Positions 1-64,000 are shown, counted from the stretch's first letter. The stretch: 64,000 nt of DNA from Raillietiella orientalis (GCA_036172245.1 JAYWIR010000013.1:3968001-4032000); one strand, 5' to 3'. Translations and numbers: made by a program. The notes: generated by a model from the letters alone, not told the origin.

Positions 1-1299
1 ACGGGGCAGTCGCTCCAGGCCTCGAGGTCACAGCCAAGGAGGGAAGCTGCCACGAGCTGCCTAAAGGGTCGGGCAGAGTAGTCGCCTGTGTCCACGGGGG
101 AGCCCTTGCAAACTTCCGGCACGAAGCATTTCGTTTCCCGTGCTCGGAAACCTCCGGTCCTTTCTCCTCCTCCCAGCTTCGTGATTCTGGCTAAAGTGCT
201 CGAGCGACTGTTCACGGGTCGGGGTGACAGAGATTTCGGAAAGAAGAAGAAGAAGAAAAAAAAATCGTCATCTCCTCTTCACCAAATGCCCGGAGAATTC
301 CGTTCGGATCCACCCGGTCAGGTCCACTTGAGGAAGGAGGAATGGAAATCCAGAGGTTTTTCGCTTCAGGACGCCGCGTTCGAGAAGAATGGAACGCATT
401 CTTTCGTGGCCGAGCCTCAGTTCTCGAGCTCCATGGCAACTCTCATGCCTTCCCCAGCGCAGTGTGAAAGAATCTGGGTGTTCTCCTGATGAGTGATACA
501 AAGGGTATAAATCTGTTCAGAGGTCAAACATGCAAGCCGAGCTAATGAACAACAGCACCGCGAAGGACAAGCGGTTCATCTTTCTGAAAAATGAGTAATT
601 AAGCACATGTTGTGCACGGTTGCCCGCTGCTCTTGCATCAGGTCTGCCCATGGTGGTAGCCCGGCGCACTTTGCGCTCAACATGTCGCCACGGAGCAGGC
701 ATCCCTTTCGAGCACGTCAGCACTCGCATACCGCCCAAGGTTTTCTTTTTTGGCACGGAAGAAACGCAGTGGGCAGAGAAGAACCCCAACTCGCTGCTCC
801 GAAGGATCGGAAACTCGACTGCATCCACTGGGCTCCGTGGTTTGTGGTCAGCACTTTCCAAGGAGTGCTGGGCTCAAGCACCCAGACTAGCAAGATGAAA
901 AGGCGGATGCGCGCGTTCCCTTCGCCGCTTCCTTTCAGCAAGGACTCCTTTCGTCGCCCGACGGTCGGCGATAAATATCGTGCGAATCGGTCAGCGCCAG
1001 CGAAAAGTCGACCTCTCGCGGCTGCTGCTACAAAGATGTTCGCGGCCTCGCGAAGCGAAGGATGAATTTGAGCCTTCCGTTTCCGTCGGAGCTGTGCCGC
1101 CGCCAAGTCTGGAGACGTCACTGGGCGCGACGTCCCGGCCATCCTTGATGACTCCGCATTTCATCCGACAAATTTCTCTGCGTTCCGCTCGAGGATCCAC
1201 GCGTCGAAACGAAAAGACCCTTTCATGGGTAGTGTGCTCCCTACTCTTCCTATTCGTTCGTGGGGGGGAGCAAACGGTCTTGTGGTGTGCTGGTTGATT

Positions 1300-4200
1300 C
1301 ACAGCACCATCTCTTGCTGCCTTGAATATCTCGAATAGGATTAACGTAGATGCAGATCGCCATTAAAAACAAAGGGTTCGCGGATGTTGTGCGGGAGATG
1401 CTGCACTTCACATCCCTGCCAAAGTGCGCGCGGACCTCAGCCTGTCCGTCCCTTAAGGTGGCATCCTGGAGATTCAGGCGTTCCGACTGTCGATGGTCTG
1501 TTAGCAGCTCGGGCGTGGAAAAGCAACAGGCAGATGGACGGCCAGGAAAGCTTAGCTCGGTGCTTGTTTCCATGTCTTTGTGACAGCTGATTTTTTAAAG
1601 TGTGTGTGTGTTTTTGTGGTTTCCTTGTTCGACAGAACGTGTTCGTGTTCGTGCGCTCTCCTCAGCGCTGGCTTGAATTCAAAAGTCCGCAGCCGGAGTC
1701 GTTTTCCCGCAGGACATCCCCACCTGCGCCGTATCCATGCGAACGGCGTTCGTTACGCTCGGAAATATTCCTCGAGCGAGTGGCGGAACTTCTGGAAACG
1801 TCATCCGAGGAATTCGGCAAACGAATGGATCTCGGGCGAATCTTTCAAGCGACCGTCTCTGAAGAAACCCCCAGCTTCTTCGGGCTCCCATACGCATCGC
1901 GCGGAGGGCAAGCTGCATCATTCCGAACAGCCGTCGTGTAGTCTCTGCGTGAAGCCTTCCTCATTTGTGCGATCACAAAGAGGGCCCGTGGTTTCGCTGC
2001 TGGCTCGGAGAGAGTCCCTGCATCCTGAGTGGTCTGCTGCTGCTCGCCGGGCTGCTGCTCGCAGAGCACGTGCGCACGGTAGCAGGAACTCTTCCTCTCG
2101 GGACTGGAAGAAGGAAGCTGCGCGCTAACGAGCTCGCATCACCTCGGAGGTCACTTCTGAAACTCGCCCAACTACCTAAAATATGCAGACGTGGTAACGA
2201 GGAAACGAGCCGAAACACTCACAATATTTCAAGGCTGCATGCTGGGAAGCTGATTGCAGATGAGTTGTGCGCTCTCCTGTGTGGATCGCCATCGGTGTTA
2301 AAGCTCTTGATTTGTATTCCGTGAAAGACGTCGGATGCATTGGAACACCGGGAATCTCCTAAAGAATGCGCTTGGTTCTTAGCGAATGACCGCTTCCGCA
2401 AGCGAGATGGCCGTCTCTTGCTGCGCACGAGTAGCCTCCGACAGTTCGACGACGTGGCTGTTTGTTAAAGGTGCCCAATGATGGCACTCCTCTCCAGCCT
2501 CTGAGCAAAAACTCCTTTCGGGGATGGGATGCTGCGTTCCTGAAAAACTTGTTCGTCCTGATGGATCGGAATCGCGTGGCAGCTTCCAGTAGCATGCAAG
2601 ACGCTTGCAAAGTCGGTTTCGATGGCTGACAGAGAGAAGTGCAAGTCTTTCCGAGGGGGGAAGCTGACCTCGAGAAGCAGCAGCGATTCTACAATGCGCT
2701 AGCAGCTGCAGGGATGCTTCGCAAAGAACTTTCAACGCTGGTTTTCAGGGTGGGCTGCTAAGGTTCGTCCCGGTTGGCGGTGACGTCGTAGAAGCATCCT
2801 CCTCGATGGAGCGGGGAAGCAAAACAAGCAAAGAAGGCCTTAGGAAGCAGCAAACAGAGATAATGGTCCTCATCAGGCAGTCTTGAGTCTCCATCATCGA
2901 GTTCCCTTGGTCCTTCCGGAGGGTTTCAAGCCGTACTGCGTCAAAAAGGAAACATCTACGAGAGCGAATTCTCAACTAAAGACGAGCCAGCAGAACGAGG
3001 TGCAGACTTCAAGAAGAAATCATGCGGTGGTTCGTGGATAATCCCATCTTGGAGCCGATCTTGTTCAGAGCAAGGTAGACCAGATGAAAACGTGGATGGC
3101 TGCCTTAGTGCTAGGGAGGCTGCTGGTCATCGGAAACTGAATCAAGCAGGGGCGCTGCTACTAAGGCACAAGAGGTCTTCGAGATGTCAGTGAGAATTTT
3201 TCTATCAGTAAGTGCATGCACGTGAACGATAGATTTCCCAGGAATTAGCACACGGGTAGTGTTCGGCAGATAAGATTTCCGCTTCCAAAACTTTACTGGC
3301 AAAATGGAAAATGTCAAGAATCAACAAGCCGGGATGCAGGGCTTCAAAGCAGAGCCATTTGGTTATTATCGTTGTAGGCGTTGACAGAGTTAGCATAGTA
3401 AAGCACTTCTTCTTGATGGAAAGTTTGCTGGAAACCTTGAGAACGGAAGCGTTCGCCGGTGTACTTTCGCCTGGAGCAACGAGAGCCCGTCGCATGACCA
3501 GCTGGAGGGGTTCAATCCAGTGACCCAAGAAGGACAAGAAGGGAATTCCCTCGCAAGTTCCACCGGATGCCAACGAGCGCACACGCGGAACTGTCATCCA
3601 TTTTTCAGAGTGAGAGATCGAGTCCTTCGGAGAGAGACTGGGACCGAAAGCACCCGCCGTTTGCTTTCGTTTCTTTCTCAGAGACGGGACGTGTCAGTTT
3701 GAAAGCGTCGTGCTGTTGCAGGGACTGCAGCAGGTCATGAATGAACTCCGAGCGCCGATTGCATTTCAACTCGAATCCACCCCTGGCCATGCGGCATTCT
3801 CCACTCTCTCTTGCTCTGAAGTTGAGTTTTGGCTGCCTGCATCCGTCCATTAGCATAAGGATGGAGCAACCTTTGTCCAAAAAATATGCAGCAAGGGAAC
3901 TTTGCCATCTCGGCCAGCCTCTTATTTGCGCCGTGAACTCCATCACCTAATAGGAAGCTGCCTATGTCGCTTGCACTGGTTAGGGGTGATTCTGATTAGA
4001 GCGGCCTTTCGAAAACCACTGGAAATCGTCTTCCATGGGAACGCTCTTAGCATTCGCACATCGCTCGTGAACGATTCGCGGCAACTGCTGTTTAGCGATG
4101 CCACCCGAATTTCACAGTACCTCGATCTCTTCCGGTTGGACCCGACCCGGAGACTTTCGAAGCCGAGTGATCATTCTGATCTGTGCAGAGAGGCTTTGGT

Positions 4201-4420
4201 CTTTAAATCTGCTGCATCTGCTGCATCCCGCCCACTCACCCTCACAGTTCGAGTCGCCGCATTGCATCTGCGTGCGAACCTGCATTTTTGCATCCTTCAT
4301 AGTTCGCGCTGGGAACAACGCCAGCGCCTTCAAGAAATTCAGCTCCAGTTCGGCCTCCATCCGTCATCTCACTGCATTTCGGCTTTCTTAGGACTGGGGC
4401 CTCACAGCGAACGAGAGCGG
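1300..4420 (+). pseudogene. Degenerate ankyrin-repeat + NACHT NTPase (NLR/STAND-like) gene
   Basis: Motifs occur in canonical order across shifting frames. Ankyrin-like: GDAALHIPAK (1394), EETPSFF (~1861), ALLCGSPSVLKLLI (~2270), DGTPLQPL (~2480). Pre-Walker-A RLLVIGN (~3117); Walker-B-like HLVIIVVGVDRV (3356-3391); LEGFNPVTQE (~3502, cf. ILGFS); SPLSLAL (~3798, cf. NPLLL); SLVNDSRQLLFS; LTVRVAALHL (4241-4270, cf. FxHLTxQEFLAALHL). Many stops and frameshifts. Confidence 0.65.
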
Positions 4421-6345: not shown

Positions 6346-6360
6346 CCAGTCACAACCCAG

Positions 6361-6949: not shown

Positions 6950-9800
6950 CTAGAATAGCCAGCTACACGTCCCAGCGCAAAAGTCCACGAGGTCGAGGAC
7001 TCGGGGTCGCAGCGTCAGTGAGCTGGCCCGTCGTCCACTTTTCCAGTCCCTTCCTCCTTCGGGAGCATAGTAACCTCCCATCCAGCCGTAAGTCTGGCTG
7101 TCCTTGTGTTTCCTGAGGGATGGCAGCGCGGCGACGAGGGAGTTCTGCTTGCCCACGCACTCTTCGTGGGATCTTCCAGGATCTCCCGGAGCGTGTGCTT
7201 TTGCTGCTGCGCGTTCACAGGAAACGTCGCACCTGTTCTGCTCTTGGCTCCTGGATCCTTGCCCACGTGCGAACGGTTCCCTGCAACCAGGCACTACCGT
7301 TCGCGGTGCAACACGGGATCCATCCCAGTTCTTCCTGGCCAGCGTGCCACCTTCCAAAGATGCAGTCCGCAGTGGATGAGGCTACGTGGACGGCGCGCAA
7401 GGAAGGACGCGGTACTGGAAGTCGTAAGCTCCCGTTGACCGGCCGCGATTGGAAGTCGAGCCTCCGGAATCCTTCCAGGAACCGGGAAGCTGGCTCCCTT
7501 CGGGGTTTCCCTCCTGTTGTGAAAGCAGAGCCGTTGCCATGGAGATGGTTGATACTTCTCCCGGGGGGTCGCCCCTCCAGAGTGTCAGAAGCGTGCTGCC
7601 CCCTTCGGGGAGCGCCCCTCAGAGAAATTCGATACCCGTACCATGGCAAGACCCAACAGTAAACCAAGAACGGTTCCCTTGCGCGTTTCCCCGGAGGAGG
7701 AATTCCAGGAAGGGATCTTTCCCGGACTCTCCTCGGTAAAGAAACGAGGAGCAACTTCCATCAGGGGGTCCCTTCGGAAAAAACAAAAAAAGAGGTTCCT
7801 TTCGGGAACAACCAGGCGGAGGGTTTCTTCCCAGGTGAAAGAGGAACTCCCTCCCTCCCTCCTGCGCCTTCCTGGATTCATAAGGTGGCTCCCACGGGGT
7901 CACCCCCTACAACTCGAAGGTTAAATGCATCCTCGGGTGGCGCTAAAGTGTTTCGTGAATGCCCCACAAGGAGGCAAACGATTCTTCAGCACTTGGAGGA
8001 CCAAAAAAAAAAAAAAAATCAATCCAAAAAAATTCTTCTGAAAAAACACTGGGGGCAGCCGAAAGGTTCGCGGAGAGCTCCCTGGAGTCTCCAGCATCCC
8101 GTCCAAGATACAGGAGAGTTCCTCCTTTCTTTGCAGATGCAGTTCATCCTTGAGGTCCTCCTTGAAAGAGAGCAGACGATCGTGATGGCGCCTCCTGTTT
8201 GCCAGGTTTCTCTCGGAGTGGCTCCTCTCGCCACGGGGCTGCTCGCGGAGGAAGCACGAAGCTGCGCACCACGCGCAGAGGAGGCCCTCGGGGTTGTCCC
8301 TTGGAGATGCAGGGCTGTAGTGAGACACTCCCACGCATTCTGAAGGGCAGCGCACTCAATCCGCAGGTGCATGGAGGTTTCTCCCTCCCGCCGCACCGGG
8401 CGCATTCCTGGGCCACACTTCCCCTCGTCCGGTGGTGAGGGAGAAGCGCGGGACGGCCCAGTGCAACAATCGGAACGCCGGGACCTACCACTTCCGGGGG
8501 GAAGCATAGAACTTCCTGGAAGCACGGCGGAGAATCCCTCGTTTTCCCCTGAGGGATTCCGAGGAGATCCGCGCAGGGTAGAGGGGTGGACAAGGATGAA
8601 CGAGCCGTCAATCTGAGATGCCATCCAGCATCCCACTCTTCGTGAAACCACGCAGGTGATTTCTCGCCTTGCGGATCTGATTCCCTCTCCGAATTTGGTG
8701 GGGCACTTTGCGTCCATAGGGGGGGGGAGGCTACCATCGCCACCCGTACCCAGGACTGTGCTCCTCTAAAGAAGAGGAGGGTTGGTCTACGGAGGTACCG
8801 AGGATGATGGCAGTGACTCGTTCCTTCTCCCACGGGACCAAGTCCAGCCGAAGTTTTCGACCTGACCTCCCGGGATCGTCCGCTCGCGCGTTCCCGCTGT
8901 TTGCGTAACCTCTTTGAGGCGGTGAAGAGGACCATTGCCCCTCCTCCGAGGAATCCTTCCCGCACCTGCTAATGGATCGTGTTGCCCTCCGGCCCATCTG
9001 GGAACGCTTTGCGGCGACCCTGAGGATCCCCCGGTGGCAACTCCAGGGACGCTTTGCGGCCCCCTCCTCCTACGCGACGCCCTTCAGCCGGCAGCCTCGC
9101 TGGCAGCTCTCTGCTGCCTATGCGGACCGTTGTTAGCTGGAGCGACTCAAGAGGAGGACCAAGCGACAGGGGTGCCACCTCCACTTCGCCGTCCGCTTCC
9201 TGAGAGATGGCTCCACCTGGATTACAACATCCAGCAAGACCTTGCCGGCATCTTCCAAAGGATGCAGAGAACCGCCCCCAGAAGAACGTGGTCCCTTCCT
9301 CCAGCCCCCCGTCCATCCCCACTTGGAAGGCGTGAGCATGGATGAGATGGGAGACAAACCCTTTCTTTCACTCAATGGCGTTGACTTTAGTGGGGGAAAG
9401 GGGAGGGGACAAGCGAGGGAAGTGCCTTTCCCTCATCTCCCACCGGAATCATCCAGACCAGCGAGTTCCAGGCCGGGAAGACCGACTTGAACAGTCGTGA
9501 GGACTCCTGCTTTTCTGGATTCTTCCATTCCTGCTGGCTTCCATGCTGCTTCAGCTTCAGGAGGACCCCAGGCAAGGTTGGAAGCTTTTGTCGGAGGGTG
9601 TTGGACAGGAGCAGAAGTCTGACCCCGGAAGGGGTGCTCGGGTGCACACTCAGCTGTGAACTCGAAGGAGCGATGGAGACCGGGAGAATGAGGGCACTCA
9701 GCAGGGTCTTTGCCGGGACGGCGGGAAAGTGCAGGGTCTCTTTCCTTCCTGCGGGGGGGGGAGTCGCGCAGGCTCCATTAGCCGGAGGCTGCAAGAGCAC
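6950..9800 (-). mobile_element. Degenerate CR1/L2-clade LINE ORF2 (APE endonuclease, RT, C-terminal region)
   Basis: Order on minus strand: endonuclease-like GGGSLHPLED (~9270); ELSCILDGMLETPGSSP (cf. PL..IFN.SLETG.VP); KNRLPP (cf. DLRPISL); SSSGETRKGTVLGLLL (cf. SGGVPQGTVLGPLLF); SHEECV...AALPSLRKHKDS (cf. SYEEAL...LPSL..RRD). DNA homology to 25310-25990 and 13040-13290. Confidence 0.65.
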
Positions 9801-10089
9801 GCGAGAGACTTTTCGAGCCTCAGCTGCTCCAGGGTGGTGGCCTCAAGTTTCGGTCCTTCCCAGAGGTTGTGCTTTCGAGGATGCAGCGGGATGGCGCTCG
9901 GTGCTGCCGGAGGCGCCGGTGCACTCGCGCGCGTGGCGACGGTGGCGGCTGCGGAAGGCGAGGAACGCGTTCCGTGCTCGCTCGCCCACCTCCGCGGCAC
10001 CCCTCCCTGCCTCTCTCCCTGCGGCATCGATCGGATGAGCGCCGCCTTTTCTTGGCTCCCTCTCAGACAAAGGGATGCGCTTGCGAGTT

Positions 10090-12250
10090 AATGAAACGCC
10101 CGCGAATCGCCATGGGAAAGGAGGAAGGAGGAGGAGAGGGACGAAGCCGAGACACCGCAGAAGCGCAGCGAGGAGGAGGGGGTAGGCGGGAAGGAGGAGG
10201 AGGGAGGGAGGGGGGGGGGGGAGAAATCGAATTTCTGCGGCGCGTGACCTTAAACTTTGCTCCGAATGGTTTCTGTCATCTGGAAATGAATGTTTCGCCT
10301 TATCGTCCGACTTATCAGCATCCGTCAGGGCGCGCGACTCCGTAATTCATGACCACCGTACTTTAGGGTTTGTCACGAAGATGCTGACTGCGACATCCGA
10401 GTTCCAATTCCTCGGAATCTGGATAGTCTGCGCCAGCTCCCCCCGCCGCTGGTAATGCGAGGGGGGGGGGGGGGGGGGGTTTGGCGAATCGGGCCCGAGA
10501 TCGAAAGACAAGAACGAAATCCGCGCGCTCGCTGGGGGGGAAGAGGACAGGAAAAGAGCGAGCGGGCAAAGATGCCCCCTCGCCGCCGCCGCCGCCGATG
10601 CTGCCTGTACCATCCGACGAGAGGGCGGAAGGCGCGCTCGCTCGCCCGCGCCGACGAAGGAGGCGCCGACGCCGCCTCCTCCGAACGCGACGGCGGGCGC
10701 GCCGCGCTCCCTCAAAAACCCGTCTTCCCCGAGACTGCGGCCGGAGGGGAGGGGAGGGGAGGGCTCGCCCACCCCCCCTCCCCTCCCCTTTCGCTCTTCC
10801 GCCCTGCACCACCCGCCTCCCGCGAGGACCGAGCAGGACGAGGAAGGTCTTTGCCATCCTCGCCGTTCTCCGGCAACGCGGGGGTGCGCGCTTGCCCTGA
10901 GGCGCCAAAGTGCTTCAGGGGTTTTCGCTTCGCTCCTTCCCCCCTCCCGCGTGCGCAGCTCCGCTCGCAGGAAAGGACGGCGAACCGAGTGCTCGACGGA
11001 CGAAAGAAGGGGGTTCGTTCCCTCGTCCCCCCTCCCCCCTTCCGTCCGCGAAGGGGTCGTCTCCGCTTCCTCCGCCGCCGCCTGCCGGCCATTCGTCCCT
11101 CCTTCTCCGAAAGGTAAACAACGTCCGGGAGAGGGAGGGAAAAAAAAGGAAAAAGCCGCGGGAAGCAGGCAGGGATGCGCCGCCTCCGTGGTCCTTTGTT
11201 TTGACAACTTGTTTGCAGCAGCGCGACAAGTGCTGCGGAGAAAGCCAAAAAAAAAAAGAAAGAAAGAACGGGAAACCTGGGAGGGAGGGAGGGAGGGAGG
11301 GAGGATGCCCCCGCAAGATCCGCGGAACGCGTCCGCTCCGCTCCGCTCGCGCCCCCGTGCTCGATAAACCCCGCGGGTCGTTCGGGGCCGCGGATCTCCC
11401 GCCACCATTCGGTACGACATTCTTCCCTCCCATTTTAATTCATTTCATCTTCGCAGCGGAGAGTCGTTCGGATGCGTTGCATCATTACGTTCGTCTCGTG
11501 CGTGACCGACGCACACGAACGGCTGCCTTCCCTTGTTCTCCCGTAGGAACCGGAAACCGAAATCCGGAAAGGCAAAAATGTCAGGAAAACTTGCGGGGCC
11601 CGAAGCTGAAATTCCCCCTCTGGGCAGCGGCAGCGACAACAACGGGGAAAAAAGAAAAAACGGCAAGTAGAAGAAGAAGAAGGAGAAGAAGAAGAGAGGA
11701 AAAAAACGGAATGGAGAGGAGCCACTCCGCCGCCGCGGGGACGGCTCTGCACGAGTGTGGCGACGGCATTCGGAGGAGGAAAGCGCCAGCCGGCCTCCCT
11801 GCGCGCTGCCCTTCGAGCACCCTGGGCAACCACCACCCCGGTTCCCCCCGCTTCGGCCGCTGCCACGGGCGGCGGCGCCTTTCGTCGAGGTGCGCGCGGG
11901 AGGACCCTGGAAGAGCCGCCCGGAACGGGCGACCGTTGGGCCTCCTGGCCGAGGCGCAGGTGTTGTTTCCGCGGACGGGCCCCCGGGGCTGCTCTCGCCG
12001 GCCCGGCGGCTGCGCACGCCGCCGGGACTCCTTGTCGAGGGCGAGAAAGGGCCAGGGAGGGCGCTTCCCGCCGCGCTTCTCGACGAGGCGCCCACGTGAC
12101 GCGCGAACGGCCGTGTCTTCGGGGCGGCGGCCGGGTGCAAAATGGCCGCGCGCCAGTTCGCCGCTGGTGGCTGCCGGGAGGGCGCGCACCCCGTGTCCTC
12201 TCTTCGTTCCGCTGGTGCTTTGAAGATTAACAGCAAATTAATGAAAGATA
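10090..12250. other. Very GC/CpG-rich island with G/C homopolymers and GCC repeats
   Basis: Composition seen directly. The long overlapping Arg/Pro/Gly-rich ORFs are consistent with stop-codon scarcity. No recognisable product. Confidence 0.6.
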
Positions 12251-12489
12251 ACGAAGCTGGACGTCCTGGTGCGATCACTTCAGAGAGGAGGAAAGGAAAA
12301 AAAACTGCTCGCCGGAAGGCCCATTTCTTTTATGGGTTTCTGCTCTTTCCGTCTCCATGGAAGCCACGAAAAAGCGCGACTTTCTCAACTTGGCGCGCAT
12401 TCCTTTTGTCTCACAAGAACAGCATTCCGTTTCAGGAGCTCATTTTCAGCTCTTTTTTTCTTTCTGGAGGAAACAAAAAAAAAAAAAAA

Positions 12490-15400: not shown

Positions 15401-17280
15401 CCTCTTGTTCCTTCTGAGGCTCGAAAAGGGCTCCAAGCGACTCCATAAACTCCTGCGCCGTCTGCAGGATGAATCGTGTGCATTTCATGCTGCATCACGT
15501 GGTACTGGGAAAAGGAGCGCCAGAAAAAGAACTGCGAGCAGCTCCGAGTAAGCGCCCTGTCGGGTCCGGAGTCCAGCAGCGACTGGTCTCCAATGGGAAG
15601 ATCAATCCCATGCTCGCATTTACTCTTCAAAATCCCGAAATAACCCGCAAACAGTCCTGCTGAGCGTGCCCTCCCTTTGCTTTCGAGCTGCCCACCTTGG
15701 CGTGTGCTTGAAAGTCCAACTCTCCTCATCAGGGCAGAGACGTCAGTGGAGACTTCCACGGCCCAGCTTTCTTGCGATTGTTTTTCAAAAAGAATTCGTC
15801 CAGATTAATGAACATAGGGAGCGCGACAGGAAAGGCAGGCAGCCAGAGTTCTCCCAACAGGGTCCCTCCTCCCCCGCTTTCCCCTCCTCGCCGGTTTTTT
15901 CAGCTCCCTGATATCCTGAATTGATGATTTCGAGTCTCAACATCACTTAGCTCAGCTCTCCCTTCCTGTATTTACACGTTTTCGAGCCCGCATCGTTTTT
16001 CATCTTCTTCAGCTGATGGTTCTTAGAATCTTGATTGCCTAGCCGGATTTCGCCCCAGGCCTTCTGTGTACACGCTTTCTGCAGCGCGTTCTTTTTCAAT
16101 AGATCTGTGGACTGGACCGCTGATGCCGCCCTTCTCCTTGGTTCTTCGGCTACAAAGCACGTAGGAAGCTCCATATAAGGCAGGAAGGAAGCGATGCATC
16201 ATCTCTCACAGAGAAGGCTCCTCTTTGATCCTCTATTGGGTTTCTGGCTCTCTGACCTGTGAGATGACTCTCCGACCGTGGCTTGGCACCAACCAGCTCT
16301 TTCTCTGCAGCATGGTGCTCTCTCTGAGGAGCTTCAGCAGCGCTGCCGCCTTTCGTCCCGATTGGCTTCCGCCGGCACCCCTGCCTTTATCCGAAGACGC
16401 AGAACCGAAGAACGCTATCCAAGAAAGGACATGGAAAGCGTGGAACATCGGTGAGAAACAGCGGATCTCTGGACGTCGTTTTTCTTCTCCTTTTTTTCTC
16501 CTTCCGAGACTCACAAGGTCAAGGAGACGCGCTGGGATTCGAAGTCACGCGACTGTGCAGCCGGCGAGACGGCCAAAAGGCAACCCTCCGCCAAGATCGA
16601 GAATTGTATCAGCTCGTCACCGGAAGCGATGCAAGTGCGTATGCATCCCGCGTGAGCATCTGTGCGCGTTTTCCTCTCAGGGTGGATGAAAAGTCTCGGT
16701 CCTTCGTTAACCTCAATCCTGAAAACCGCGAGGCTACTGCTGATCAAGACGAGGAGGCTCGTGCTTCCGATGTTCTTGCAGCTGGGGATGTTCTGGATGG
16801 GACGCGGGAACTGGCACCAGTTGCCGCGAAAGCTGGATCGCCGCTGGCGCAAGGAGTGTGTCAGGTCACGACAGCGTTCGTTTTGATTGCGCACATGCTC
16901 TTACCACTGTGTTTGCATCTCCCGAACGCGCATCAGCGGGATGCCCCGAGGAAACTGCGTTGGCTAAATGATGACGTCGAAGTACCCGATCCGTGTCTCG
17001 ATCCTTTCGAAGCGAAGCTGCCCGTGAGAAAATCCGGGATTCCAGCGAGCTGCACCAAACCGCCAAATGAAAGGTCGTAGCAATGCATGATTTGGAGGCC
17101 GGTGCTGGAGGAGTCCCTCCAGGCTGTGCTTTTATATTAAAAGTGGGAGCAGCGAAGGCTCATTTGGATGCCTTCGTAGGTGCTCATACAAGCGGATTGG
17201 CAGAGTTTTCGAAGAAGCTTGTCAGTGAGAGCAAGCTCGGGGCTCAAGATGCTGCAGGGGCTGGCTGCTGCTGCTTGAAC
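12490..17280 (+). pseudogene. TXNRD-like: High-Mr (animal-type) thioredoxin reductase pseudogene, possibly thioredoxin-glutathione reductase with N-terminal glutaredoxin domain
   Basis: Strong C-terminal half: AAGDVLDGTRELAPVAAKAGSPLAQ (16778-16852; cf. AIGDVLxGKPELTPVAIxAGxLLAxR), TTVFASPERASAGCPEE (cf. PTTVFTPLEYGxxGLSEE), DDVEV..PFE, KVVAMH..GAGGVPPGCA..LKVGAAKAHLDAFVGAH, ending AGAGCCC (cf. AGCUG). Weaker N-terminal pieces: HSLIITG (~13418), GGPC..ECTVEK (13602-13648; cf. GGTCVNVGCIPKK), FPWDGM, SRGFNRRCTE (~15098). A tentative Grx-like stretch lies at 12490-12770. Frameshifts and stops throughout; possible intron 16452 GT..AG 16680. Confidence 0.85.
12930..13400 (+). mobile_element. CR1/L2-like LINE RT fragment within the reductase pseudogene region
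   Basis: 13041-13290 aligns with the reverse complement of ~7510-7720 (ISPLEGTRKGTAPRF vs SSSGETRKGTVLGL). Confidence 0.65.
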
Positions 17281-17388
17281 AGGAAACAGCATGGACCAAA
17301 CCGTTACCCGCTGGCTCACAAGAAAGCCTACTCTAAAGTTCATAGCAGCATAGAAGCGCATGCCAACATCCTACGAGTGCAGCCAAAT

Positions 17389-17428
17389 ATGAGGAAGGCA
17401 GCTAGAAGAGCGCATTTTGTCTTCCGAG
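17389..17428 (+). other. Relic eukaryotic SECIS-like stem-loop
   Basis: AUGA-G, then helix GAAGGCAG paired with UUGUCUUC (8 bp incl. 2 G-U), AGAA 11 nt after AUGA, closing CGAG. Located ~115 nt downstream of the reductase GCxx C-terminus. Confidence 0.55.
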
Positions 17429-17649
17429 TGAAGTAACCTATAAAATGTGGGGCACGCACGCGCAAAGGAAATCTTGGTTTCGGATGGAACTTTTTGCAGC
17501 TTATGGCTCCTTGCCAAAACTCCATGAATGTTCTCAACCATTAATAGAAGAAATGAATGAAAAAGTGTTAGTAGTTTTTTTTTTTTTTTTGCGTGTGTTT
17601 TTTCCTTTTTCAAAGCCTGCAGCGTTCTCATTTCTGAGTGAACTTCCTG

Positions 17650-20050: not shown

Positions 20051-21070
20051 TACGTGGAAAGAACGGAGGGAAGTCTCCTCGACAGATTCTCCCTGTGATC
20101 GAGAGAGGCTCCTGGAACACTCCCAGCAAGCAGAAGTGGGGCATGCACCTTTGGGTTGCGCCGCACGACGCCGCTTCCCGCGTTCCTTGTTCTCTCTCCT
20201 CCGCTATAATTCTTTATATTCGTTCCCATTTGGAATCGGATCCCATCTATGCTGCCTCTCCGAAAGACTTGTTTTCTCCGAGCTCCAGCCAGCAAGGATG
20301 CAGAGCACGCCCTTAAGTGATGAAAGCTTTATGACGACTTGCTCCTGGAGCTAGCAGAGAGACGGATATCGTCGCCGGCTGCAAATGGGCCAAGGAGCTC
20401 CCACAATGCCACTTTTTCCTGGGGTTCATTGATGAACTTCCATGGAGCATCTTCTGGGGTTCGAGGCGATCCGACAAATGAGCGTCGGTCTCTGAGAATG
20501 GCAACGCGAGTGACGGTGAGAGAATCGCAAAAATGAGAATGCAGACCGGTCCGCGTTGGTTTGGGAGGCAAGGAGCATTTCTTCCAGCCAGCCCCAAGGG
20601 GTCATTGAAGTCTTTCCTACTCGTATCCTTCGTTGCTTACTCTTGAGAGTGGGGTTAGGGATCGCAACGAGGAGTCTTGGTCAAAACCAGATGAATGAAT
20701 GCAGACCTCTCTTTTCCTTAAAAAGAGTGGCAGCCCAAGACCCATTATCCCGAGACCAGCCTTAGCATCTGCTTACAGATGCACTTCCTCTTCTTATGCC
20801 ACCTTTACTAATGACGTCTATGGGAATGGGTATGCCCCAAGCAGGGCTTCTGCAATGCCCCCTATCATGGCAATGCCACCATCTGCAATGCCAGTATATG
20901 CTCGGCAAACTCGCCTTTCTCCAGAACAACCACGTCCTTCATCTGCTGCTCCATTTAGACCAGCGATACTCAACCTTTCTTCTTCTCGGGCCACATACAT
21001 AAGCTTGCAAGATTATGCGCGGGCTGTATACAGTAGGTTATGTATTATAACATAATCATGTAAAGGATTT

Positions 21071-42791: not shown

Positions 42792-44890
42792 ATGGAGACG
42801 CGAACTGTGAGGACTAGAAGATTAGGAAAAGCTCTGACGTTTACAAATGGCGATGTGGTAAAAGAGGATACTCGCTATAGGGTGTCTGCTTGGGAATATG
42901 CAAGTGGATACGGTGAGTTGGTTGATGAGTTTTGCTTCGACTCCGTTTCCATGGGCAACGAGGCAATGTTCTCTGTGAAGAATAAAGAAAGCAACGCTTC
43001 CCACTTGCTTGCCGAAAATGGTAGTTGGACCCCCATATCAACACATGCAGAAAAACATCACTCGGATAAGTTGAGCGAAATTGCTCACGTTGGGAACGAT
43101 TTTGAAGCAACTCCGCCTCGTGCTGCTGCTGCGAGAGGAAGATGGAACGCGGTAAGGCGTTTAGCGAACAGGGGTGCCAATGTCCATGCTGAAATGTGTG
43201 GATACGCTCTCCTTTACATTTTGCTGCCTTACAGATTATCCTGCAGCCACCATCCAGGAAAATGGAGCTTTGTCCCCCTATTTGCTTCACCCACTTGGCT
43301 TGCGCTGAGGTGTGTGTTCAGTTTCGTCTTCCAATCCGTCTCAGCTCTTTGGTCATTTCTTTGCCGACTACCACATTGAGTTTTGGAATTCCCAGCAGAT
43401 GCCAAGAAAGCGAGTCAAGATGCCCCCTGCGATGCGATTTCCCCACGTACCTTTTTTCAAGGTGTTCTTCGAAAACACATGTTTGTCGCTACACGATGAA
43501 TGCGTGTCCTCGTTATCGTTCTCACAACCGTACAGGTGTGCCATTTAGTCGCACTCTACTTTCCCTTACGATCTCTGCGTTCACAAAAAAATCCCTTCGG
43601 TCCGAACTCCACCGCACAGCTCCTGATCTGAGGCGGATGAAACCCGGGCAGGGGCGACGGAGCGTTCCGAAGTCATCTCGGACTGATGATGCTTGTTTTC
43701 GAGAAGCTGCTTCCAGCTTCTTCCAGCTGCTGGAGCTGATACGGCGTTCGGCTGGAGAACACCTCCGAGAATCGCGCATTCCTCTCGACGCGCGAACCGC
43801 ATGAATGTTTGCCGATCGGGGCCCATGCGGTTTTCCCCATCTAAGGTCCAAACGGCCCTCGAAGCCCTTCTGTCGAGGCCCTTCAGAAGGCCCTTCTGTT
43901 TGACGGAATTCGAGTTCGACGCGGACGGCGGGTGCTCGCGAGAAGCCGCCCGATCGCTGCAAGGATCAGTGAGGGTGAGCTCTCGCCATGGAACTTCGAA
44001 GTGTCTTCCGGCTCGCCCGGGTGGAGGGATTCCCCTCTGAAAGGAGGCTGGGCCGGTGATTTGACTCATCGCTCGGCTTCCGCTCCAAAATGAGACTCGA
44101 ATCGTAAGCGAAAGCTGTCCGCTGCGAGATCCCTGCGAAACCTTCCCTTTCTCATCAGCGTGATCATTCCTCCAGCAGCTGGGATCAGAACGAGAGATTC
44201 CTGGAGCCAACCGGACCACGGAGCAGAGCGGCAGCCAGTCGGCCACGTGGGACTCGCAGATGCAAACTGCCTCTGGAGCCACACTGATGGTCAGCATGCA
44301 GGACGAACGACTGACCTGGCGAAGCAACAGCTTGCATCGGATTTTCGAAAGAAGCACCTCGGAAGATTTCAAAGAAGAGTTTACGGTGAATGCACTTTCC
44401 GCACCGAAGTGTGACTTTCTGGAGGACGCAGGTCATCGTTCACAACTCTTTGATATTTCCTTTGTGCTTTCTAATTGCTCTCTACTGTTTCCTATGCTTT
44501 TGCTTGCAGCAAAATTTGCTTCTTTGGCTGACGTCTTTCAGATGTGAGAACGACTTCCAAGAAAAAGGAAAGAAAAAAGTCCGATCGTGGTACTCCCAGG
44601 CTGCATCTTCTGACAAAGCCAAATACGCTGCTTTTGGGCCGAGTGGCCTCGAGGTGTTCCCGGGACGAAAACGAAAGGACGTTCCCTACCTATCTTTCAA
44701 TGCCAAAGGAAACAAGAAACTGCTTTCTCATCTCGTTTGCAGATGGCAGAACCGTTCGGCGACGGACGCTGATCTCCGGGAAATGTTTCCATGCTTCGAA
44801 AGTTTGCAGGGACGTTGGACTGAAGCACTTCATCGCTCGAATCTCAATTTCATGGATGTGATCAACTTTTCATCCCATGGCTGGAATTGA
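42792..44890 (+). pseudogene. Ankyrin-repeat gene relic (downstream segments unidentified)
   Basis: NKESNASHLLAENG and NDFEATPPRAAAARGRWNAVRRLANRGANVHA (43095-43190; cf. TPLH.AA..G...VV..L...GANV.A). Extent beyond ~43200 is a guess. Confidence 0.55.
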
Positions 44891-49110: not shown

Positions 49111-49663
49111 CAACCTCAGAACGGGAACCCCCAAGCAGGCGGAGATGAGGCTCACGAAACCAAGACCGGCATCAAAGACTCCAATCTGTTTGAATGCAGG
49201 CCAAGAGCCACCGGCAGCCCTGAAGTGCTGCTCATGTGGCTCATTGCCAGTCTGTGCACAAACTAACATAACTTCAGAGGATGAAATTCGGGAATTCGGG
49301 GCTCACTTGTGCGCATTCGGGAAATTCTTTCACGAGTTTTAGTGCTATGAGGGAATGAGTATGTTTCTCCCTGCGGAGTCGGAAGTCACCAAGCTCGGTG
49401 CGAAGATCAAATTTCCCAGAGCAGCCAGTAGCCCGCAGCGCCCACGGCCGCCCTACAAATTGCTCCTATAACAGCAGTGCACCCAGTTTTCTTAATTTAT
49501 ACTATGGGAAGATGCTCCGTACTTCAAGTTATGCAGAGTCCCACGGGCTGGGCGAAGGCGATCTTCAGCACCACTTTCGTGACAACGCGCCGCCGCCATG
49601 GAGCTCACAAATGCAAACGCAACATCCAGCTCCAGGATTTTCTCCAAAACACCTCGCGGAGGA

Positions 49664-52600
49664 GGGTGTTCCTGCTCGCTCACGACCCCGGGAGCCTTCC
49701 ACCTTTCCGACTGTCTCTTGGCGGCCACCGAAGGAGGATGAAGGCCTCTCTAAACGGACGGAAGTCGGTCCTCTCTGAGCCTGGAGCTCGCTTTAATTAG
49801 TTGAGGTTCTTTCGGAATGGCCGGCCTTGGCGCGAATCAACGAAAGAACAAGAGAATCGGACCGGGTGCCTCGGGGAAATTCGATTCAAGCACGCCAGAT
49901 CGCGAAAGCGGACTGCAGAATCTTTCAGATGAAGCACTCAAAGGGAACGTCTCTCGACCGCTGATTCGTTTCTTCCCAGGAAGAAAATCACAGCATGGCT
50001 TTGGTCTCCAATTGAAAGACAAAGGGCAGCACCTATCCCGAACAACCTTCAAAATGCAGCACCCTTCAAGGAATAGAGAGGGGGCGGACGGTTGCCCGTA
50101 ACTACCAGGGAACATGCCAAATCTGTTGGGATTTTGGAAACCTTGGAGCTTGGTGGCAGAAACCTTTCCTGGAACTCCAGATCAAAGACTGCTCGAGACT
50201 GAAGTTCCTCAACTGAGCACCTTTTTTGGAAATTACGGACATGTCCTGAAATGGAAAGCATTCAGCGGCGCGAATGTGGTCGATTTCAGGCGCTTAGTCA
50301 TCAATACAAAAATCGTGCTGCTGTCATATGCCTTGATAAGTGGCTCATTTTCTAGGCATCTTATAGAGCTCGGTGGAGCTCCTTGAGGAACGTTTCCGCT
50401 GGCGAGATGTTTTCGAAGGATTCTGCAGAATTTCGTCAAGCCAGAAGGCTTGCCTCTCCTATGAAATAACATGAGATGCGATGGAATCTCAGTTCGCTGC
50501 CATTTGCTGTTCCTGAAAGGGTCGAATCTCCGAAACAAAGCTTGCGCTCCTGAGAAAGGCTGCAGAGTCTGCATCTTTGCGAGTCGGAGCGCAAGCTGAG
50601 TTTGGGGTTTCAGCGCAGAGGGACCTGGACAAAGCCCCTCATGTATTTTCGGACCTCAGTCATTTACTGCCATTGCTCAGCGCACTGTCCCGTCGTCCGA
50701 TCGTTCCGGAAGGCTTGCAGACTCAAGGATCAGTGCATCTCCCTTTATGATTGGCGTTGAGGAAGATGGCTCATTCTTTCCACGCTCATCGACAGCAAGG
50801 GAGCTGATCATCCAGAATCTCCACACGTCCTCAGACAAGACTTGGGCAAGAGCATCTTTGAGGATTCATTTTCGCGACCAGTTCCCAGATCTCAAAGATG
50901 AGTTCCAAGAACTAAAATTTCGTGGATCGAAACATGGCATCGTCGTCAGTTGGAAATGAAATCACGTGTATGGAAGATGAATTTTTGAGAGCTGTTTCTT
51001 CGGGAAACTCAGCATCTGTAGTTTTCTTAGGGATCATGGATTTCACGTCGCTGCTTGGAGCGCTGCAAGAAAAGCAATCATTTCTTCCATTACCATTGAA
51101 AACTTTGAAAAGGAGATGTAGTAGTATCCACGAGCACACGGTCGTTTATCTCAAAGTTCCTTTACCCTGAGTCTGGTACAGCGTTCGCTTTGCTACTCTT
51201 CTCCTCGAACGGCCTTCCGATCATGGTATAATCTCTGCCGCTTTCCTTTTTCGACCTTGCTGACACGGTCGCATACATCCGGTCATCTTAATGCGAACAG
51301 AAAAATGCCAACAAATGCGCTGTGAAACCGACTCTGTTGAGCAGACTTGGAAGACACTCGACTCATGGTGAAGCTGTTGGTTGCTATGTAGTGGTACGGG
51401 CTGCAGTTGTCCGAAGAGGACTCCAGCAACGGCCTAGGAGACTGCTGATACTCAGTGGGGGTTGTGTTGGAGCTGTTCTGGTTGGAATAAGCATACGGCT
51501 TGCTATCCGAAGGAGCGTGGTCCCTGAACAGCAGATCTGCGGACAGTTCTGAGAATAGGAGAGCAAGGGCGCGCCCCCTTATGGAGCGGTTCCCGGCCAA
51601 CGCTACCTCTAAGCTCACAGGTGGCGAAGCTGCTCCTCTTCTTCAGCAGCGAGCGGTAGCGGCGCGTGCAAGAGACCGTCAGTATGCACAGTGCTACGAC
51701 GGCCACGGAGATGAGGATCACGGACCAGAAGGTAAAGTCGGTCCTGGAACGCATCTCACGATGCTTCCCTGCAAACCCAGGAGCAAACGAACGAGCTTAC
51801 ACGGACAGCTCGGAGAGGAAGATGTCCCTTTCGGAGCAGCAGAATTTATGGGAATTTCTTTCGCAGCAGAGGAATTCTAAAGGGCAGTGGAACGAGTGGA
51901 TCCATCTCCCATTCCGGTCGTAGTAGCTGGTGCAGTGGTTGATGAGCGAAACTGAAATTCGAGAAGGGTTTCCCTGAAGAGAGGCGCCGGAGGCAAGTCC
52001 GCAGCCGTGAAGCGCCACGGTTCGCACTTTCGCGCGTGCGCGCGGCGTCGAAAGGATACCTCCTAGGCTCTTCTTCGTAAGCAGTGAATAATATTGCATC
52101 ACAGACACCAGCAGGGGGAAGCTGCGAACAGAAAAGGAAAGTCACGGGCAGCACACGAGAGGAAAAGAGGCAGTGCTTACAGATGTGAGCTCTGACACGC
52201 CTCTTACGAAGGGAATGCTTCCGGCAGAACCACCGTCCCAGGAAGAGGCATCGCTTGCGTCCTTCTTTAAAGTTCCGAGCGCCTCGGTGGCAACCCGGGG
52301 AACACGGTGGCTGCTATTCTGAAAGGGAAGCCGCACGATTACTTCCTTGGCTACTGCGCCATTACGCGGAGAAAGTGGTCGCCACGTGCTTGCGCCCACT
52401 CACTCCCTGCAATCCATTTTCAAAGAAGCCAAAGTCCCTTTTGCGTTGCGTTAGGCCACGAGCACGCAGGAGTGGCTGGCAGGCAAATTGCAGGTGTCGA
52501 AAGTCTGCATCTAGTAGGGGAGGGGGGAGGAGGAGGAAAAGGCTTCCTGATTAGACAGAGCGCCACGGTAATTTCGGGAAAATCACGAGGCGGCCGCCCG

Positions 52601-53335
52601 TTCCTTGCTACCGTAAGGGGGGAGAGTCTCCCTCCTCCTCTCGTTCCCCGGGAGCGCGGAGATTCGAGGACCGAAGCACTACGGCGAGCGATCACGCGGG
52701 CGTCTCAGCAGCAGACTCGGAGAAACCGAAAGGGCAGAGAACACGGCGGATGTGCCCTCCGCTCCTCAGGGATTTGCCCGCCTACGCTGCACCACGTTCG
52801 CGGTCCGGTGGGATTCCTGGGGCTGGCGAGAGCGCCATCGTGCACGCAGGCTGCTGTGTCGGCGCGCGTGGACGGTCCAAGGATGCACAGCTGCTTTGAA
52901 GCCTATCCGTGCATCCAAGGGGACGAAGATCGATTTTAGGGAAAAGAGGGGAAAACGAATTCCGAAACTTCCCTTAAATTCCTCCTTCCCGGAGAGAAAC
53001 CGTTCCCGAGAGACCCAATAAGAGGGTGGCCTTTCCTTGCTCTTGGAAACCGAAGACATCCAAGCGGGGTATGCCGTGGATCAAGATTTTCCTCCACAAA
53101 TGGCGAAGGTTCTATCCACACTATGTGGCCACAAGGAGTTCGAAACGAAGATAGTTTTTCGCAGAGGGGGTGTTCCTGCTCGCTCACGACCCCGGGGGCC
53201 TTCCACCTTTCCGACTGTCGCTTGGCGGCCACCGAAGGAGGATGGATGCCTCTCTAAACGGACGGAAGTCGGTCCTCTCTGAGCCTGGAGCTCGCTTTAA
53301 TTAGTCGAGGTTCTTGAAGATTGGCCGGACTTGGC
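49664..53335. repeat. Direct repeat pair, ~170 bp (49664-49831 and 53168-53335)
   Basis: The 148 bp core has 5 mismatches by manual alignment; offset 3504 bp. Confidence 0.92.
50050..52000 (+). pseudogene. Toll-like receptor pseudogene (LRR-TM-TIR)
   Basis: LRR-like GNEITCMEDEFL..DFTSL..LKTL (~50950-51110); hydrophobic TM LLILSGGCVGAVLVGISIRLAI (51442-51507). TIR-like segments: RQYAQCYDGHGDEDH (box1), LGEEDVPFG (cf. L.ERDF.PG, box2), SSWC (51922-51933, cf. SEWC). Confidence 0.55.
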
Positions 53336-61441: not shown

Positions 61442-61495
<54 letters not shown>

Positions 61496-62870
61496 GTGGG
61501 TGGGGGAGGCAATCAGCGTCTCTGCGATTCCCTATTTGAATTACAAATATTGGTTCTTTCTACATAATCAATCAGCGTTTGGGCTTCTGATGAGCGGAGG
61601 ATGCCACACACATCCGAAGGAGAGCTCGCTGGGTTTGATCAGCGAACTGCAACCGGGAATTTCGGAACGGCAGAACGCAAAGACCTCCGATCGCTGCTGC
61701 TTCAAGTTCAAGGCTTTCCTCGTTTCTTCCTGCCGCTGTTTTCCCTTTTTCCTTCTTTTTTTTTTTTTTTTCTCTTTCGGGCTGCAGACTGCCTCGATGA
61801 ATTCTCATCTGGGGCAAACTGCGCGAGCGATCCTCATCAAATGCCATCGATGACACAAACGAATCTCAACAGGGTGCCTCCAGGTGCTATTTGGGAGCTG
61901 AAGCGTAAGTGAGCAATTAAGATAACATATATGGTTCTGTATCTGAATGATGCCAGCTGGAATGTCTCTGTAATGCCGAATGACTCTTGATTTCATGCTC
62001 CCTCCACAGTTCCAATTTTGGAAGCCGAGGAGTAACAGCGAAACTGTCCACGGACTCCTCGAACAATTCAGTTCGTGCAGTGTGTGGTTTTCATAGATGC
62101 TTGCAGAGGATCAAAAAAACAGGGCTGTCGACAGGGCAGGAAGTGCAAGCTTCACAGGAGAAACAGGGAGTTTTAACAGCAAAGCAGCAAAAAAGACACA
62201 CGAGGCATAGATTGCTTCCTCAGACCACTAAATCAAATGCCAGTGTGGCTCACGCCTACCGAAGACGTCAGCGCTTAGGAAGCGAAAGAGATGACTTTCC
62301 TTCGAGTGGGATGACGTCATCGTCGTGCTCTTATGGACTGTCGTCAATAGTAGCACCATTCATGTACAAGTTGATCAGCCGGCACTTTGCTTCCTCTAAG
62401 AACGTATCAAGAAAAAATTATCTAAGAGAGAAGCACTGCTAAAGGCAATGGAAATATTCGAAGCAAGAAGTCTTCAAAGAGCATCGCATGAGGTCAACCC
62501 GAATCCACTTTGTTGGAATTTGTGTTCATGGTGTGCATACTGATTATGAGGGAAACCCTCGAACGCATTCGAAGCACTGAGAACCGTAGTACCTGTCGCA
62601 TCTCCAAGGTAGGGGCAGATCGGATGGAAAGGAGGGACGAACGAGAGGAGCAGAAATGCATTCGTGGCTCTGAGCACAGACGTCCCCGTGTCACTTTTCC
62701 ACGTGGTCGCCATTTTGCTTCCAAGCACTTTTGCTTCCGTGGAACGAGCTTTTTGGAACCGCCTGCATGAAGTCCGCCGCCTGTCAGCTCAGCAGCGCTG
62801 CACTTTCCGACTCCCCACTTTCCCCCTCGAGATAGAAGAGGCCACTTGCAATGCAGGGAGGAAGACGTGG
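60560..62870 (+). mobile_element. hAT transposase remnant (ZMYM1/P52rIPK-like lineage)
   Basis: FFLLAR...LRG (cf. FLARQG.A.RGH), SLPPTEIQS (cf. YTSP.IQNE), CCTIRYF (cf. ICIRYV), RCSAQG (cf. CRGQ.YD), LGLISEL, GVTAKLST, PFMYKLIS, and dimerisation motif ILLPSTFASVERAF (~62712-62753). Confidence 0.7.
61444..61492. repeat. (TG)n microsatellite inside the hAT transposase remnant
   Basis: Read directly. A (CA)n tract also occurs at ~53431-53455. Confidence 0.95.
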
Positions 62871-63511
62871 TAGCCACCGGGCGCGAGGTCAGGACTGGTG
62901 ATCTTCCCATTCGAATGCCTGAACTGCCTGGAATGTGCGGACGGCATGTGTTGCTAAGGCGCGCGTTGCCGTGAAGGAGAGGAACCGTTCCTTCTGACCT
63001 CAGCCCTCCACGTCTTCGGTGGTACGCCGCAGCTTCGAGAGTGTTTCTACGCAGTGGACTGGCCAAGTGGTGGTCGTTCCGGGCTCCATAAAGTCCACCG
63101 AAAGCACGCACACTGCCGTCCGCACACTCCACACAATTCAGGCATTCGAATGGGAACTTTTTGAAGTTCTCGCGCCCGGTGGCTACCACGCCTTCCTCCC
63201 TGCACCTCATGAAGTGGCCCCTTCTATCTCGAGGGGGAAAGTGGGGAGTCGGAAAGTGCAGTGCTGCTGAGCTGGCCCCACTCCCAGGCGGCGGAATTCC
63301 ATGCAGGCGGTTCCAAAAAGCTCGTTCCACGGAAGCAAAAGTGCTTGGAAGAAAAATGGCGACCACGTGGAAAAGTGACACGGGGACGCGTGTGTTCCGA
63401 ACCACCGATGCATTTCTGCTCCTCTCGTTCGTCCCTCCTTTCCATCCGATCTGCCCCTACCTTGGAGATGCGACAGGTACTACGGTTCTCAGTGCTTCGA
63501 ATGCGTTCGAG
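62558..63511. repeat. Long fold-back: ~400 bp arms (62558-62955, 63103-63511), ~147 bp loop
   Basis: Outer 104 bp are perfect reverse complements (62558-62661 / 63408-63511). Inner parts alternate near-perfect and diverged patches. Confidence 0.97.
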
Positions 63512-63759
63512 ATGCGCCTCGTACATGCAAACACAGAATTCTGCGAGTGTCCCATGAGCGCATTCAAAGAGACTTCATTGTCTGCAAGCTGAGGTGTCAT
63601 GTCTTAAAAAAAAAAATGGATAGGAAGCCACTGAAAAATGGACACTGAAATGCGCTTTCTGGAACAGAAAGAACACATGTGAGACATGCAAAATGCGGAA
63701 AGGACATTGCAGTCTGCAAAGGTTATTTCGGACGTGGACTTCCCATCTCAGCAAACGGT

Positions 63760-64000
63760 GAGGAAAATCCCACGTGGGTGGCCGTGTGGCCGCGCGTGCC
63801 CCCGCCGCGTCGCAGTATTCGAATCCCGCCCGGGTAAGGGTCGACCCCGAGAAAACGGGCGCGTCGTAGGTTTCGAGTCCTCCCGCTAGATGACGCAGGT
63901 TGGCTTGTAGGCCTCGAGTGCGGTACCAGTGGAAGCAGCCGGAAACCAGATGCTCCCGTTGACTGGCTGGGATTGGGAGTCCAAAGCGTCCTCCTTGAGG
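63760..64000 (-). mobile_element. CR1/L2-like LINE copy, truncated by the window edge
   Basis: gatgctcccgttgactggctgggattggga matches 7428-7455 and 25347-25376. Confidence 0.6.

Follow-up and report, generated by a model that had tools for sequence, protein, structure and literature searches.

A window of 64,000 nucleotides from Raillietiella orientalis (GCA_036172245.1 JAYWIR010000013.1:3968001-4032000, one strand, counted from its first letter) contains a decayed thioredoxin-reductase copy in which the direction of substitution in dead DNA can be followed codon by codon. Inferred changes in this relic run preferentially from A:T to G:C and do so alike on both strands, a directional signal that appears to be real and is modestly supported. 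We ascribe it, with about an even chance of being right, to a GC-biased neutral substitution regime acting on all of the DNA, most likely GC-biased gene conversion (gBGC), and not to an editing or defence process targeted at repeats or pseudogenes. This account starts from what was demonstrated directly, namely the relic, the asymmetry of its changes, the strand symmetry of that asymmetry and the uniform composition of the window. The genome is unusually poor in TpA, but the regime itself is best filed under a kind already known, and it is not a new defence system. The relic is the following feature.

16639..17268, plus strand: TXNRD/TGR-type thioredoxin-reductase pseudogene; C-terminal ~200 codons, intron-less, with ~6 frameshifts, in-frame stops and 38% identity to the family consensus.

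By sequence similarity to the FAD/NAD(P)-binding and dimerisation regions of high-molecular-weight thioredoxin reductases, the relic is a member of the thioredoxin/glutathione reductase family. In a HMMER search the frame 16328-17077 (plus strand) had a single library match, P0002 (E 6.6e-4), which is a thioredoxin reductase fragment 99% identical to a Bugula neritina protein. When 112 TXNRD proteins of at least 450 amino acids were used as tblastn queries, 110 of the 112 matched positions 16706-17268 (plus strand) at E <= 1e-3, the best at 3e-16, in agreement with a first-pass annotation of this DNA that had placed a reductase relic here. The best case ran in frame +2 (33% identity over 133 residues) and then in frame +1 (36% over 66 residues). 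All 26 matches obtained with the relic frame in the PDB were thioredoxin reductases (TrxR), thioredoxin glutathione reductases (TGR) or glutathione reductases (GR). The nearest TXNRD, marginally, was that of Lingula (81 of 200 residues). Pfam did not detect the reductase domain in the relic frame even at E <= 10, and a metagenome scan with the relic open reading frame (ORF) found no relative.

A frameshift-aware alignment to the family consensus over 16639-17268 gave 76 identical residues of 201 and passed through in-frame stops and about six changes of frame; along the relic the match alternates between frames +2 and +1, and stop codons fall within the tblastn alignment as well. Of the 598 consensus positions, the window holds 408-598 only, and the relic is single-copy in it. 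Among the 70 columns conserved in at least 90% of homologues, 36 are replaced, and all five consensus tyrosines aligned to the relic are lost. The frameshifts, the in-frame stops and the loss of invariant residues mark the relic as a non-functional copy. Most simply, the lack of introns over ~200 codons together with the truncation suggests a 5'-truncated processed pseudogene that was dead on arrival; neither a poly(A) tract nor a target-site duplication was recognised downstream of it. In the segment 17300-17600 (plus strand), just 3' of the coding end, A/T and TpA are above the average of the window, and the segment ends at a T-run (~17575-17590). It may be what is left of the 3' untranslated region of the parent; an Rfam search found no selenocysteine insertion (SECIS) element near 17300-17600.

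To polarise the changes, the consensus residue at columns conserved in at least 70% of the 112 TXNRD homologues was taken as the ancestral state, and the minimal codon change was inferred. This gave 136 columns, 75 of them replaced in the relic. The inferred changes amounted to 37.8 A>G/T>C, 12.8 G>A/C>T, 19.2 A>C/T>G, 13.7 C>A/G>T, 8.8 A<>T and 23.7 C<>G. The claim of the first-pass annotation that most departures from conserved motifs are A>G or T>C thus holds for the direction of the transitions and fails for "most", their share being about 33% of the inferred changes. Two of the codon changes it had listed, at 16814 (ACA>GCA) and 16841 (CTG>CCG), were reproduced by the alignment, and two further codons, GGA at 16853 and TGT at 16859, were read in the sequence as described.

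At codon positions 1 and 2 (136 A/T and 136 G/C sites), changes from A:T to G:C (W>S) numbered 52 and those from G:C to A:T (S>W) 22.7. The corresponding two-state equilibrium GC (GC*) is 0.70, with a bootstrap confidence interval (CI) of 0.60-0.79, compared with a GC of 0.554 in the relic and 0.54 in the window; only 0.2% of the bootstraps lay at or under the GC of the relic. The per-site transition ratio over the 136 columns was 2.9 (CI 1.6-6.5). At the 70 columns conserved in at least 90% of homologues, A:T>G:C transitions stood at 17 and G:C>A:T transitions at 6.3, for a GC* of 0.77 and a per-site ratio of 4.2 (CI 1.8-15). On the sense strand the per-site rates were 25.5/87 for A>G, 12/49 for T>C, 8.5/84.5 for G>A and 4.3/51 for C>T. 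The A:T>G:C excess in the relic is strand-symmetric, as had been proposed earlier for unselected DNA in this window.

As a control, the same measure was applied to 108 functional homologues against the same consensus. These were balanced, with 571 W>S and 528 S>W changes and 289 and 285 transitions in the two directions. Ratios of homologues differing at no more than 33% of the columns stayed mostly near 1, and those of the twelve most divergent ranged from 0.66 to 2.3. When the relic codons were shuffled over the columns, the transition ratio was 1.61 as compared to the observed 2.8, a value reached by 0.3% of 300 shuffles. At 54 of the replaced columns the relic has a residue that no homologue among the 112 shows, so that a divergent functional parent cannot account for these changes; they comprise 32.3 W>S against 10.3 S>W transitions and 13.2 against 9.2 transversions. 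The high share of C<>G changes was also considered as a sign of gBGC and was dropped, since shuffled codons gave the same share (0.195 vs 0.199), which makes it an effect of composition.

The surrounding DNA can be summarised in one line.

1..64000, no strand: background of low codon periodicity; GC 0.54, TpA observed/expected ratio (O/E) 0.39, CpG O/E 0.95, AA/TT 1.3, GA/TC 1.2, AC/GT 0.75.

Its base counts (A 15008, T 14474, G 17339, C 17179) obey strand symmetry. GC varied between 0.50 and 0.62 across 4-kb bins and between 0.48 and 0.66 over 32 two-kb bins, without bimodality. TpA is scarce, as had been suspected from inspection, with an O/E of 0.21-0.62 and low values in all 32 two-kb bins. 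CpG, which had been called abundant, is undepleted and shows no excess (0.75-1.08 in two-kb bins). The remaining ratios were 1.02 for TG, 1.00 for CA, 1.34 for AA, 1.31 for TT, 1.21 for GA, 1.25 for TC, 0.74 for AC and 0.75 for GT. The relic resembles this background, with a TpA O/E of 0.38 and a GC close to that of its flanks (0.548 and 0.506).

The stop triplets TAA and TAG occur at 0.38 and 0.29 times the uniform expectation, and because they are so rare the window contains 219 stop-free frames of at least 110 codons, although nearly all of it is non-coding. The mean codon-periodicity chi-square in 360-nt windows was 6.3, for a null value of 6, which amounts to almost no codon periodicity. 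It exceeded 22 in five regions only (16621-17161, 20761-21121, 37381-37741, 42781-43201 and 51601-51961). Long open frames in DNA without codon periodicity make ORF length useless as gene evidence here. That the presumably neutral relic has acquired the extreme TpA deficit, and has lost all five aligned consensus tyrosine codons, points to an origin of the deficit in mutation or fixation and speaks against one in transcript-level selection.

Few repeats were found by self-BLAST of the window, and five pairs were compared, of which the longest is the following.

62558-62950 and 63110-63511, no strand: arms of an inverted repeat, 88% identical, found by self-BLAST; 19 transitions and 11 transversions; arm GC 0.567 and 0.569.

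This 400-bp inverted repeat has a 160-bp spacer between its arms and may represent a foldback element or one with terminal inverted repeats; no protein match was found in or near 62558-63511. Over the five pairs, 141 transitions (A/G 67, C/T 74) and 84 transversions were counted, an unpolarised transition share of 63%, and GC was equal in both copies. CpG steps showed no hypervariability (48 of 164). The compositional islands expected of mutation confined to duplicates were not seen, either in the 32 two-kb bins or in the relic compared with its flanks. Uniform GC and TpA, a relic that matches its flanks and an ordinary transition:transversion ratio in the repeats indicate that the process is not aimed at repeats or dead genes, and the repeat targeting suggested by the first-pass annotation is thus not upheld.

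One further gene served as a coding comparator.

51506..51951, minus strand: Shisa-like gene; Cys-rich exon, inferred 57-nt GT..AG intron, transmembrane helix and basic tail.

The Shisa_N domain was matched by Pfam in the ORF 51800-52141 (minus strand) at E 1.6e-8 (34.9 bits for a cut-off of 22), and the Cys-rich exon is bounded by splice-like AG/GT sites. The predicted gene model describes a gene that is apparently alive and intact. Over its 129 codons, GC at third positions (GC3) is 0.72 and the 4-fold sites hold A5, C29, G19 and T12 (GC 48/65), so that its GC3 is far over the non-coding GC and close to the inferred GC*. No homologue of the exon was found among proteins of 62-200 amino acids, an Atlas search gave a weak match (0.86) to a Shisa_N cluster, and a metagenome scan with the ORF found no relative. 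A 178-bp direct repeat, 93% identical, lies at 49654-49831 and 53159-53335 (plus strand) and flanks ~3.3 kb holding the Shisa-like gene; its two copies may be the termini of a segment that is mobile or was duplicated.

The sequence of events that we favour would be as follows. The window would be gene-poor and largely unique non-coding DNA, in which neutral sequence is GC-rich, CpG-undepleted and strongly TpA-depleted. Judged by the Shisa-like gene and the animal-type TXNRD relic, it would belong to a eukaryote that is probably an invertebrate animal; the sequence also gave an impression of coccidian DNA, against which the Shisa-like gene speaks. An old, 5'-truncated and intron-less copy of a thioredoxin reductase would have been inserted into it already dead, most simply as a processed pseudogene, and since its insertion would have drifted, presumably neutrally, under the substitution regime of the surrounding DNA. 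That regime would be strand-symmetric and directed from A:T to G:C, with an equilibrium GC of ~0.7, and the relic would by now have reached the GC and the TpA deficit of the background. The cause would be gBGC, a fixation bias on all recombining DNA. It is taken as the most likely one because, among the causes known for regimes of this sort, it is the most frequent, and it fits both a GC* above the present GC and the GC3 of 0.72 in the live gene.

Several points weigh against this reading. Only one relic was quantified, and its ancestral states come from a consensus of other species, mostly vertebrate TXNRD3, in place of the parent gene. Among the functional homologues used as controls, the most divergent already differ at up to 33% of the scored columns. 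A window GC of 0.54 would be far from equilibrium if GC* is 0.7, which the reading leaves unexplained. GC3 is 0.47 in the relic and 0.45 in an ankyrin-like frame at 42723-43376, both under the background GC; with a GC* of ~0.7, the low relic value calls for an AT-rich parent (GC3 ~0.2-0.3 in a two-state calculation), unlike the live gene. The dinucleotides above expectation are the transversion neighbours of TA (AA, TT, GA and TC), whereas its transition neighbours TG, CA and CG stand at 0.95-1.02. Without an excess of these three, the TpA deficit does not simply come from A>G at TpA. In the repeat pairs, TpA steps were variable in 15 of 39 cases and AT steps in 34 of 96, a slight difference only. 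Finally, gBGC should raise transitions and transversions together, and the transversion skew is weak (1.25-1.4x, compared with 2.8-3.1x for transitions, on small counts). Equal enrichment of A>C/T>G had been put forward at the outset as the sign that would favour gBGC; a transversion skew of this size speaks clearly neither for gBGC nor against it.

That last point leads to the main rival of gBGC, a mutation spectrum itself biased to A:T>G:C transitions in all DNA, with no fixation bias, through a lineage-specific change in replication or repair fidelity or in base damage such as weaker mismatch repair or more adenine deamination. We consider it fairly unlikely. It would account for a skew concentrated in transitions (36.5 W>S vs 13.0 S>W in the relic) with transversions near balance (15.1 vs 12.1), and the same pattern is seen in the 54 columns that are certainly derived. 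W>S transitions make up 34% of the relic changes, compared with 18% in the functional homologues and 21% in the shuffles, whereas W>S transversions, at 14%, are not raised over the 18% and 19.5% of the same controls. The counts are small, however, and the CIs of the transition and transversion ratios overlap (1.6-6.5 for transitions), and transitions are present in an ordinary proportion in the five repeat pairs. GC-biased mutation does exist in a few eukaryotes, and in the portion of the source cited here such spectra appear as rare exceptions (PMC11884799).

A more far-reaching form of this explanation, which we hold to be quite unlikely, is an animal lineage in which spontaneous mutation itself now yields net A:T>G:C transitions, and in which unselected DNA also loses TpA through a strong, context-dependent effect, the whole genome moving from an AT-rich ancestor to ~70% GC. 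A genome in transit to GC would be in keeping with the low GC3 of the relics (0.45-0.47) next to a GC* of 0.7. The flip could stem from a lineage-specific change in mismatch repair, in the handling of adenine damage or in base modification.

The signal might also be an artefact of ancestor inference, if the parent belonged to a GC-rich lineage whose protein was already built of GC-coded residues (Gly, Ala, Arg, Pro, Val, Asp, Glu) and the relic merely relaxed to a stationary background, without any directional process still at work. The largely vertebrate TXNRD3 origin of the consensus speaks for this, as do the presence of the relic residue in at least one functional homologue at 21 of the 75 replaced columns and the many conservative one-transition exchanges (K>R, I>V, T>A, N>D, V>A); the GC3 of the live gene testifies to GC pressure on coding DNA, and the relic has the GC of its flanks. 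The bias is, however, equal or stronger at the columns conserved in at least 90% of homologues, the transition excess persists at the 54 columns with residues seen in no homologue, and radical replacements are numerous (L>P, Y>C, Y>R, Y>P, E>G, N>G). By our own calculation, the A>G/G>A ratio to be expected from a reversible stationary process at the window composition is ~1.15 and not ~3. An artefact of this kind is distinctly improbable as the explanation.

The first-pass annotation had likened the decay to a reversed repeat-induced point mutation (RIP), in which DNA that is duplicated or foreign would be singled out by an adenine deaminase or a modified-base system and peppered with A>G/T>C changes. 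This would agree with the A:T>G:C excess in the relic, and the small number of recognisable transposons could mean that they were destroyed. Against it, the composition is uniform, with no mutated islands on a normal background, and the relic, single-copy in the window, is neither more GC-rich nor TpA-poorer than its flanks. Real duplicates, moreover, differ by 141 transitions and 84 transversions at equal GC, whereas RIP-type processes give almost only transitions, and we regard such a system as very improbable. ADAR-type A-to-I editing of the parent mRNA before reverse transcription would suit the likeness of the relic to a processed pseudogene (no introns over ~200 codons, 5' truncation) and the prevalence of A>G among single sense-strand changes (25.5), but editing marks one strand only, so that the strand symmetry (T>C at 0.24 per site, A>G at 0.29), with flanking non-genic DNA of the same composition, refutes it as the main cause and leaves it next to no chance.

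With gBGC retained as the favoured cause, the remaining content of the window was considered for further relics. Stop-to-stop ORFs were searched against Pfam, 219 of at least 110 amino acids at E <= 0.001 and 391 of 65-109 amino acids at E <= 0.01. Among these 610 ORFs, Shisa_N was the only match over its curated cut-off, and three others (CFTR_R, Mucin and DUF7279) fell under theirs. No Pfam match to reverse transcriptase, transposase, kinase, kringle, ankyrin or reductase domains was found in the 610 ORFs of at least 65 amino acids. Rfam gave no match at gathering scores and six weak ones at E <= 0.5, all far under those scores, and no tRNA gene was found in the window. The window-wide erosion of dead genes and transposons that had been envisaged consequently comes down to one quantifiable relic and the composition, and no transposon protein domain was found in the ORFs searched. 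An ankyrin-like stretch is the nearest to a second case.

42993..43202, plus strand: ankyrin-like motif(s) in the stop-free, codon-periodic frame 42723-43376; periodicity 30.8, G at codon position 1 = 0.40.

Within it, the stretch 43104-43196 had 42 matches in the PDB, all of them ankyrin-repeat proteins (best E 1.4e-4). This score sums one query stretch of ~30 residues over many target repeats, and in most rows no stretch passes alone. The ankyrin relic proposed earlier finds weak support in the identity of the PDB matches, but the per-domain i-E-values were at least 20 in the two ankyrin alignments printed and the frame had no ankyrin match in Pfam even at E <= 10, nor any homologue among those of similar length. 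Compared by eye with the usual ankyrin motif, conserved positions in 43104-43196 show T>C, A>G, C>G and A>C changes and none toward A/T. A putative repeat just before 43104 has A/T-rich codons without a GC trend. The frame 42723-43376 may be a live exon.

Kringle, kinase and hAT relics had likewise been named, without coordinates, and were not located: motif searches of the window gave no convincing site. Since Pfam missed the true TXNRD relic, its silence on these three families is weak evidence. One kringle-like candidate, at 20765-20938 (minus strand), was rejected for want of a kringle match in the PDB. The regions 20761-21121 and 37381-37741 (plus strand) combine codon periodicity with T-rich third positions (GC3 0.36 and 0.43) and have no recognisable family; they may be unfamiliar exons or further relics. 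A PDB search with the ORF 37330-37851 returned nothing.

Some local features of composition were also recorded. Two GC-rich islands, 8001-12300 and 34001-36000 (GC 0.61-0.66), have stop-free frames in all six phases and purine/pyrimidine tracts, the first with a GGGA repeat at 11279-11304. Between 10001 and 12000, TG/CA is very low (0.65) and AA/TT high (1.77), and a GC-rich hairpin at 10738-10795 bears a faint likeness to a miRNA precursor, far under gathering scores. At 32780-32976, an AT-rich patch containing TpA precedes a 31-bp tandem repeat (3.4 copies, 98% matches), which makes it a local exception to the TpA-poor background.

As nearly all eukaryotes mutate toward AT, a high neutral GC needs a counter-force, and a dead gene copy that can be read letter by letter indicates that unselected DNA here gains GC and loses TpA. 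The window also carries a practical warning, as open frames are no evidence for genes in it and profile searches missed a true relic. A flipped mutation spectrum, if true, would place a metazoan among the rare exceptions to the GC>AT mutation bias and would offer a natural experiment on how genome composition turns over.

Among known systems, the animal processed pseudogenes offer the closest parallel to the relic itself, an intron-less and 5'-truncated housekeeping copy with frameshifts and stops, followed by non-coding sequence. Pseudogenes of well-studied animals decay toward AT. The relic differs from them in decaying toward GC and in having no recognised poly(A) tract or target-site duplication. 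With fungal RIP, to which the decay had first been compared, the window shares directional transitions that ruin non-functional copies. RIP produces C>T/G>A changes, is confined to duplicated DNA, makes almost only transitions and leaves AT-rich islands. The window shows the opposite direction, a uniform composition and duplicates differing at the transition:transversion counts given above. The likeness to gBGC, which is described in many eukaryotes, lies in the strand-symmetric W>S excess of the relic, in a GC* of 0.70 over a present GC of 0.54 and in the involvement of all sequence classes; the weak transversion skew and a background that is CpG-undepleted and extremely TpA-poor do not form a standard gBGC signature. 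According to the portion of the source cited here, gBGC is typically GC-biased in eukaryotes, whose mutation is near-universally biased from GC to AT with very few exceptions, the GC>AT/AT>GC ratio being 0.38 in Gephyrocapsa huxleyi, the strongest of them, and 0.87 in Prasinoderma coloniale (PMC11884799). Those two species were algae of 65-70% GC studied in mutation-accumulation lines, whereas the present case is one pseudogene in a window of 54% GC from a probably animal genome; what they have in common with it, as far as that portion describes them, is that the genome is GC-rich and its neutral DNA is pushed to GC, contrary to the usual GC>AT bias (PMC11884799).

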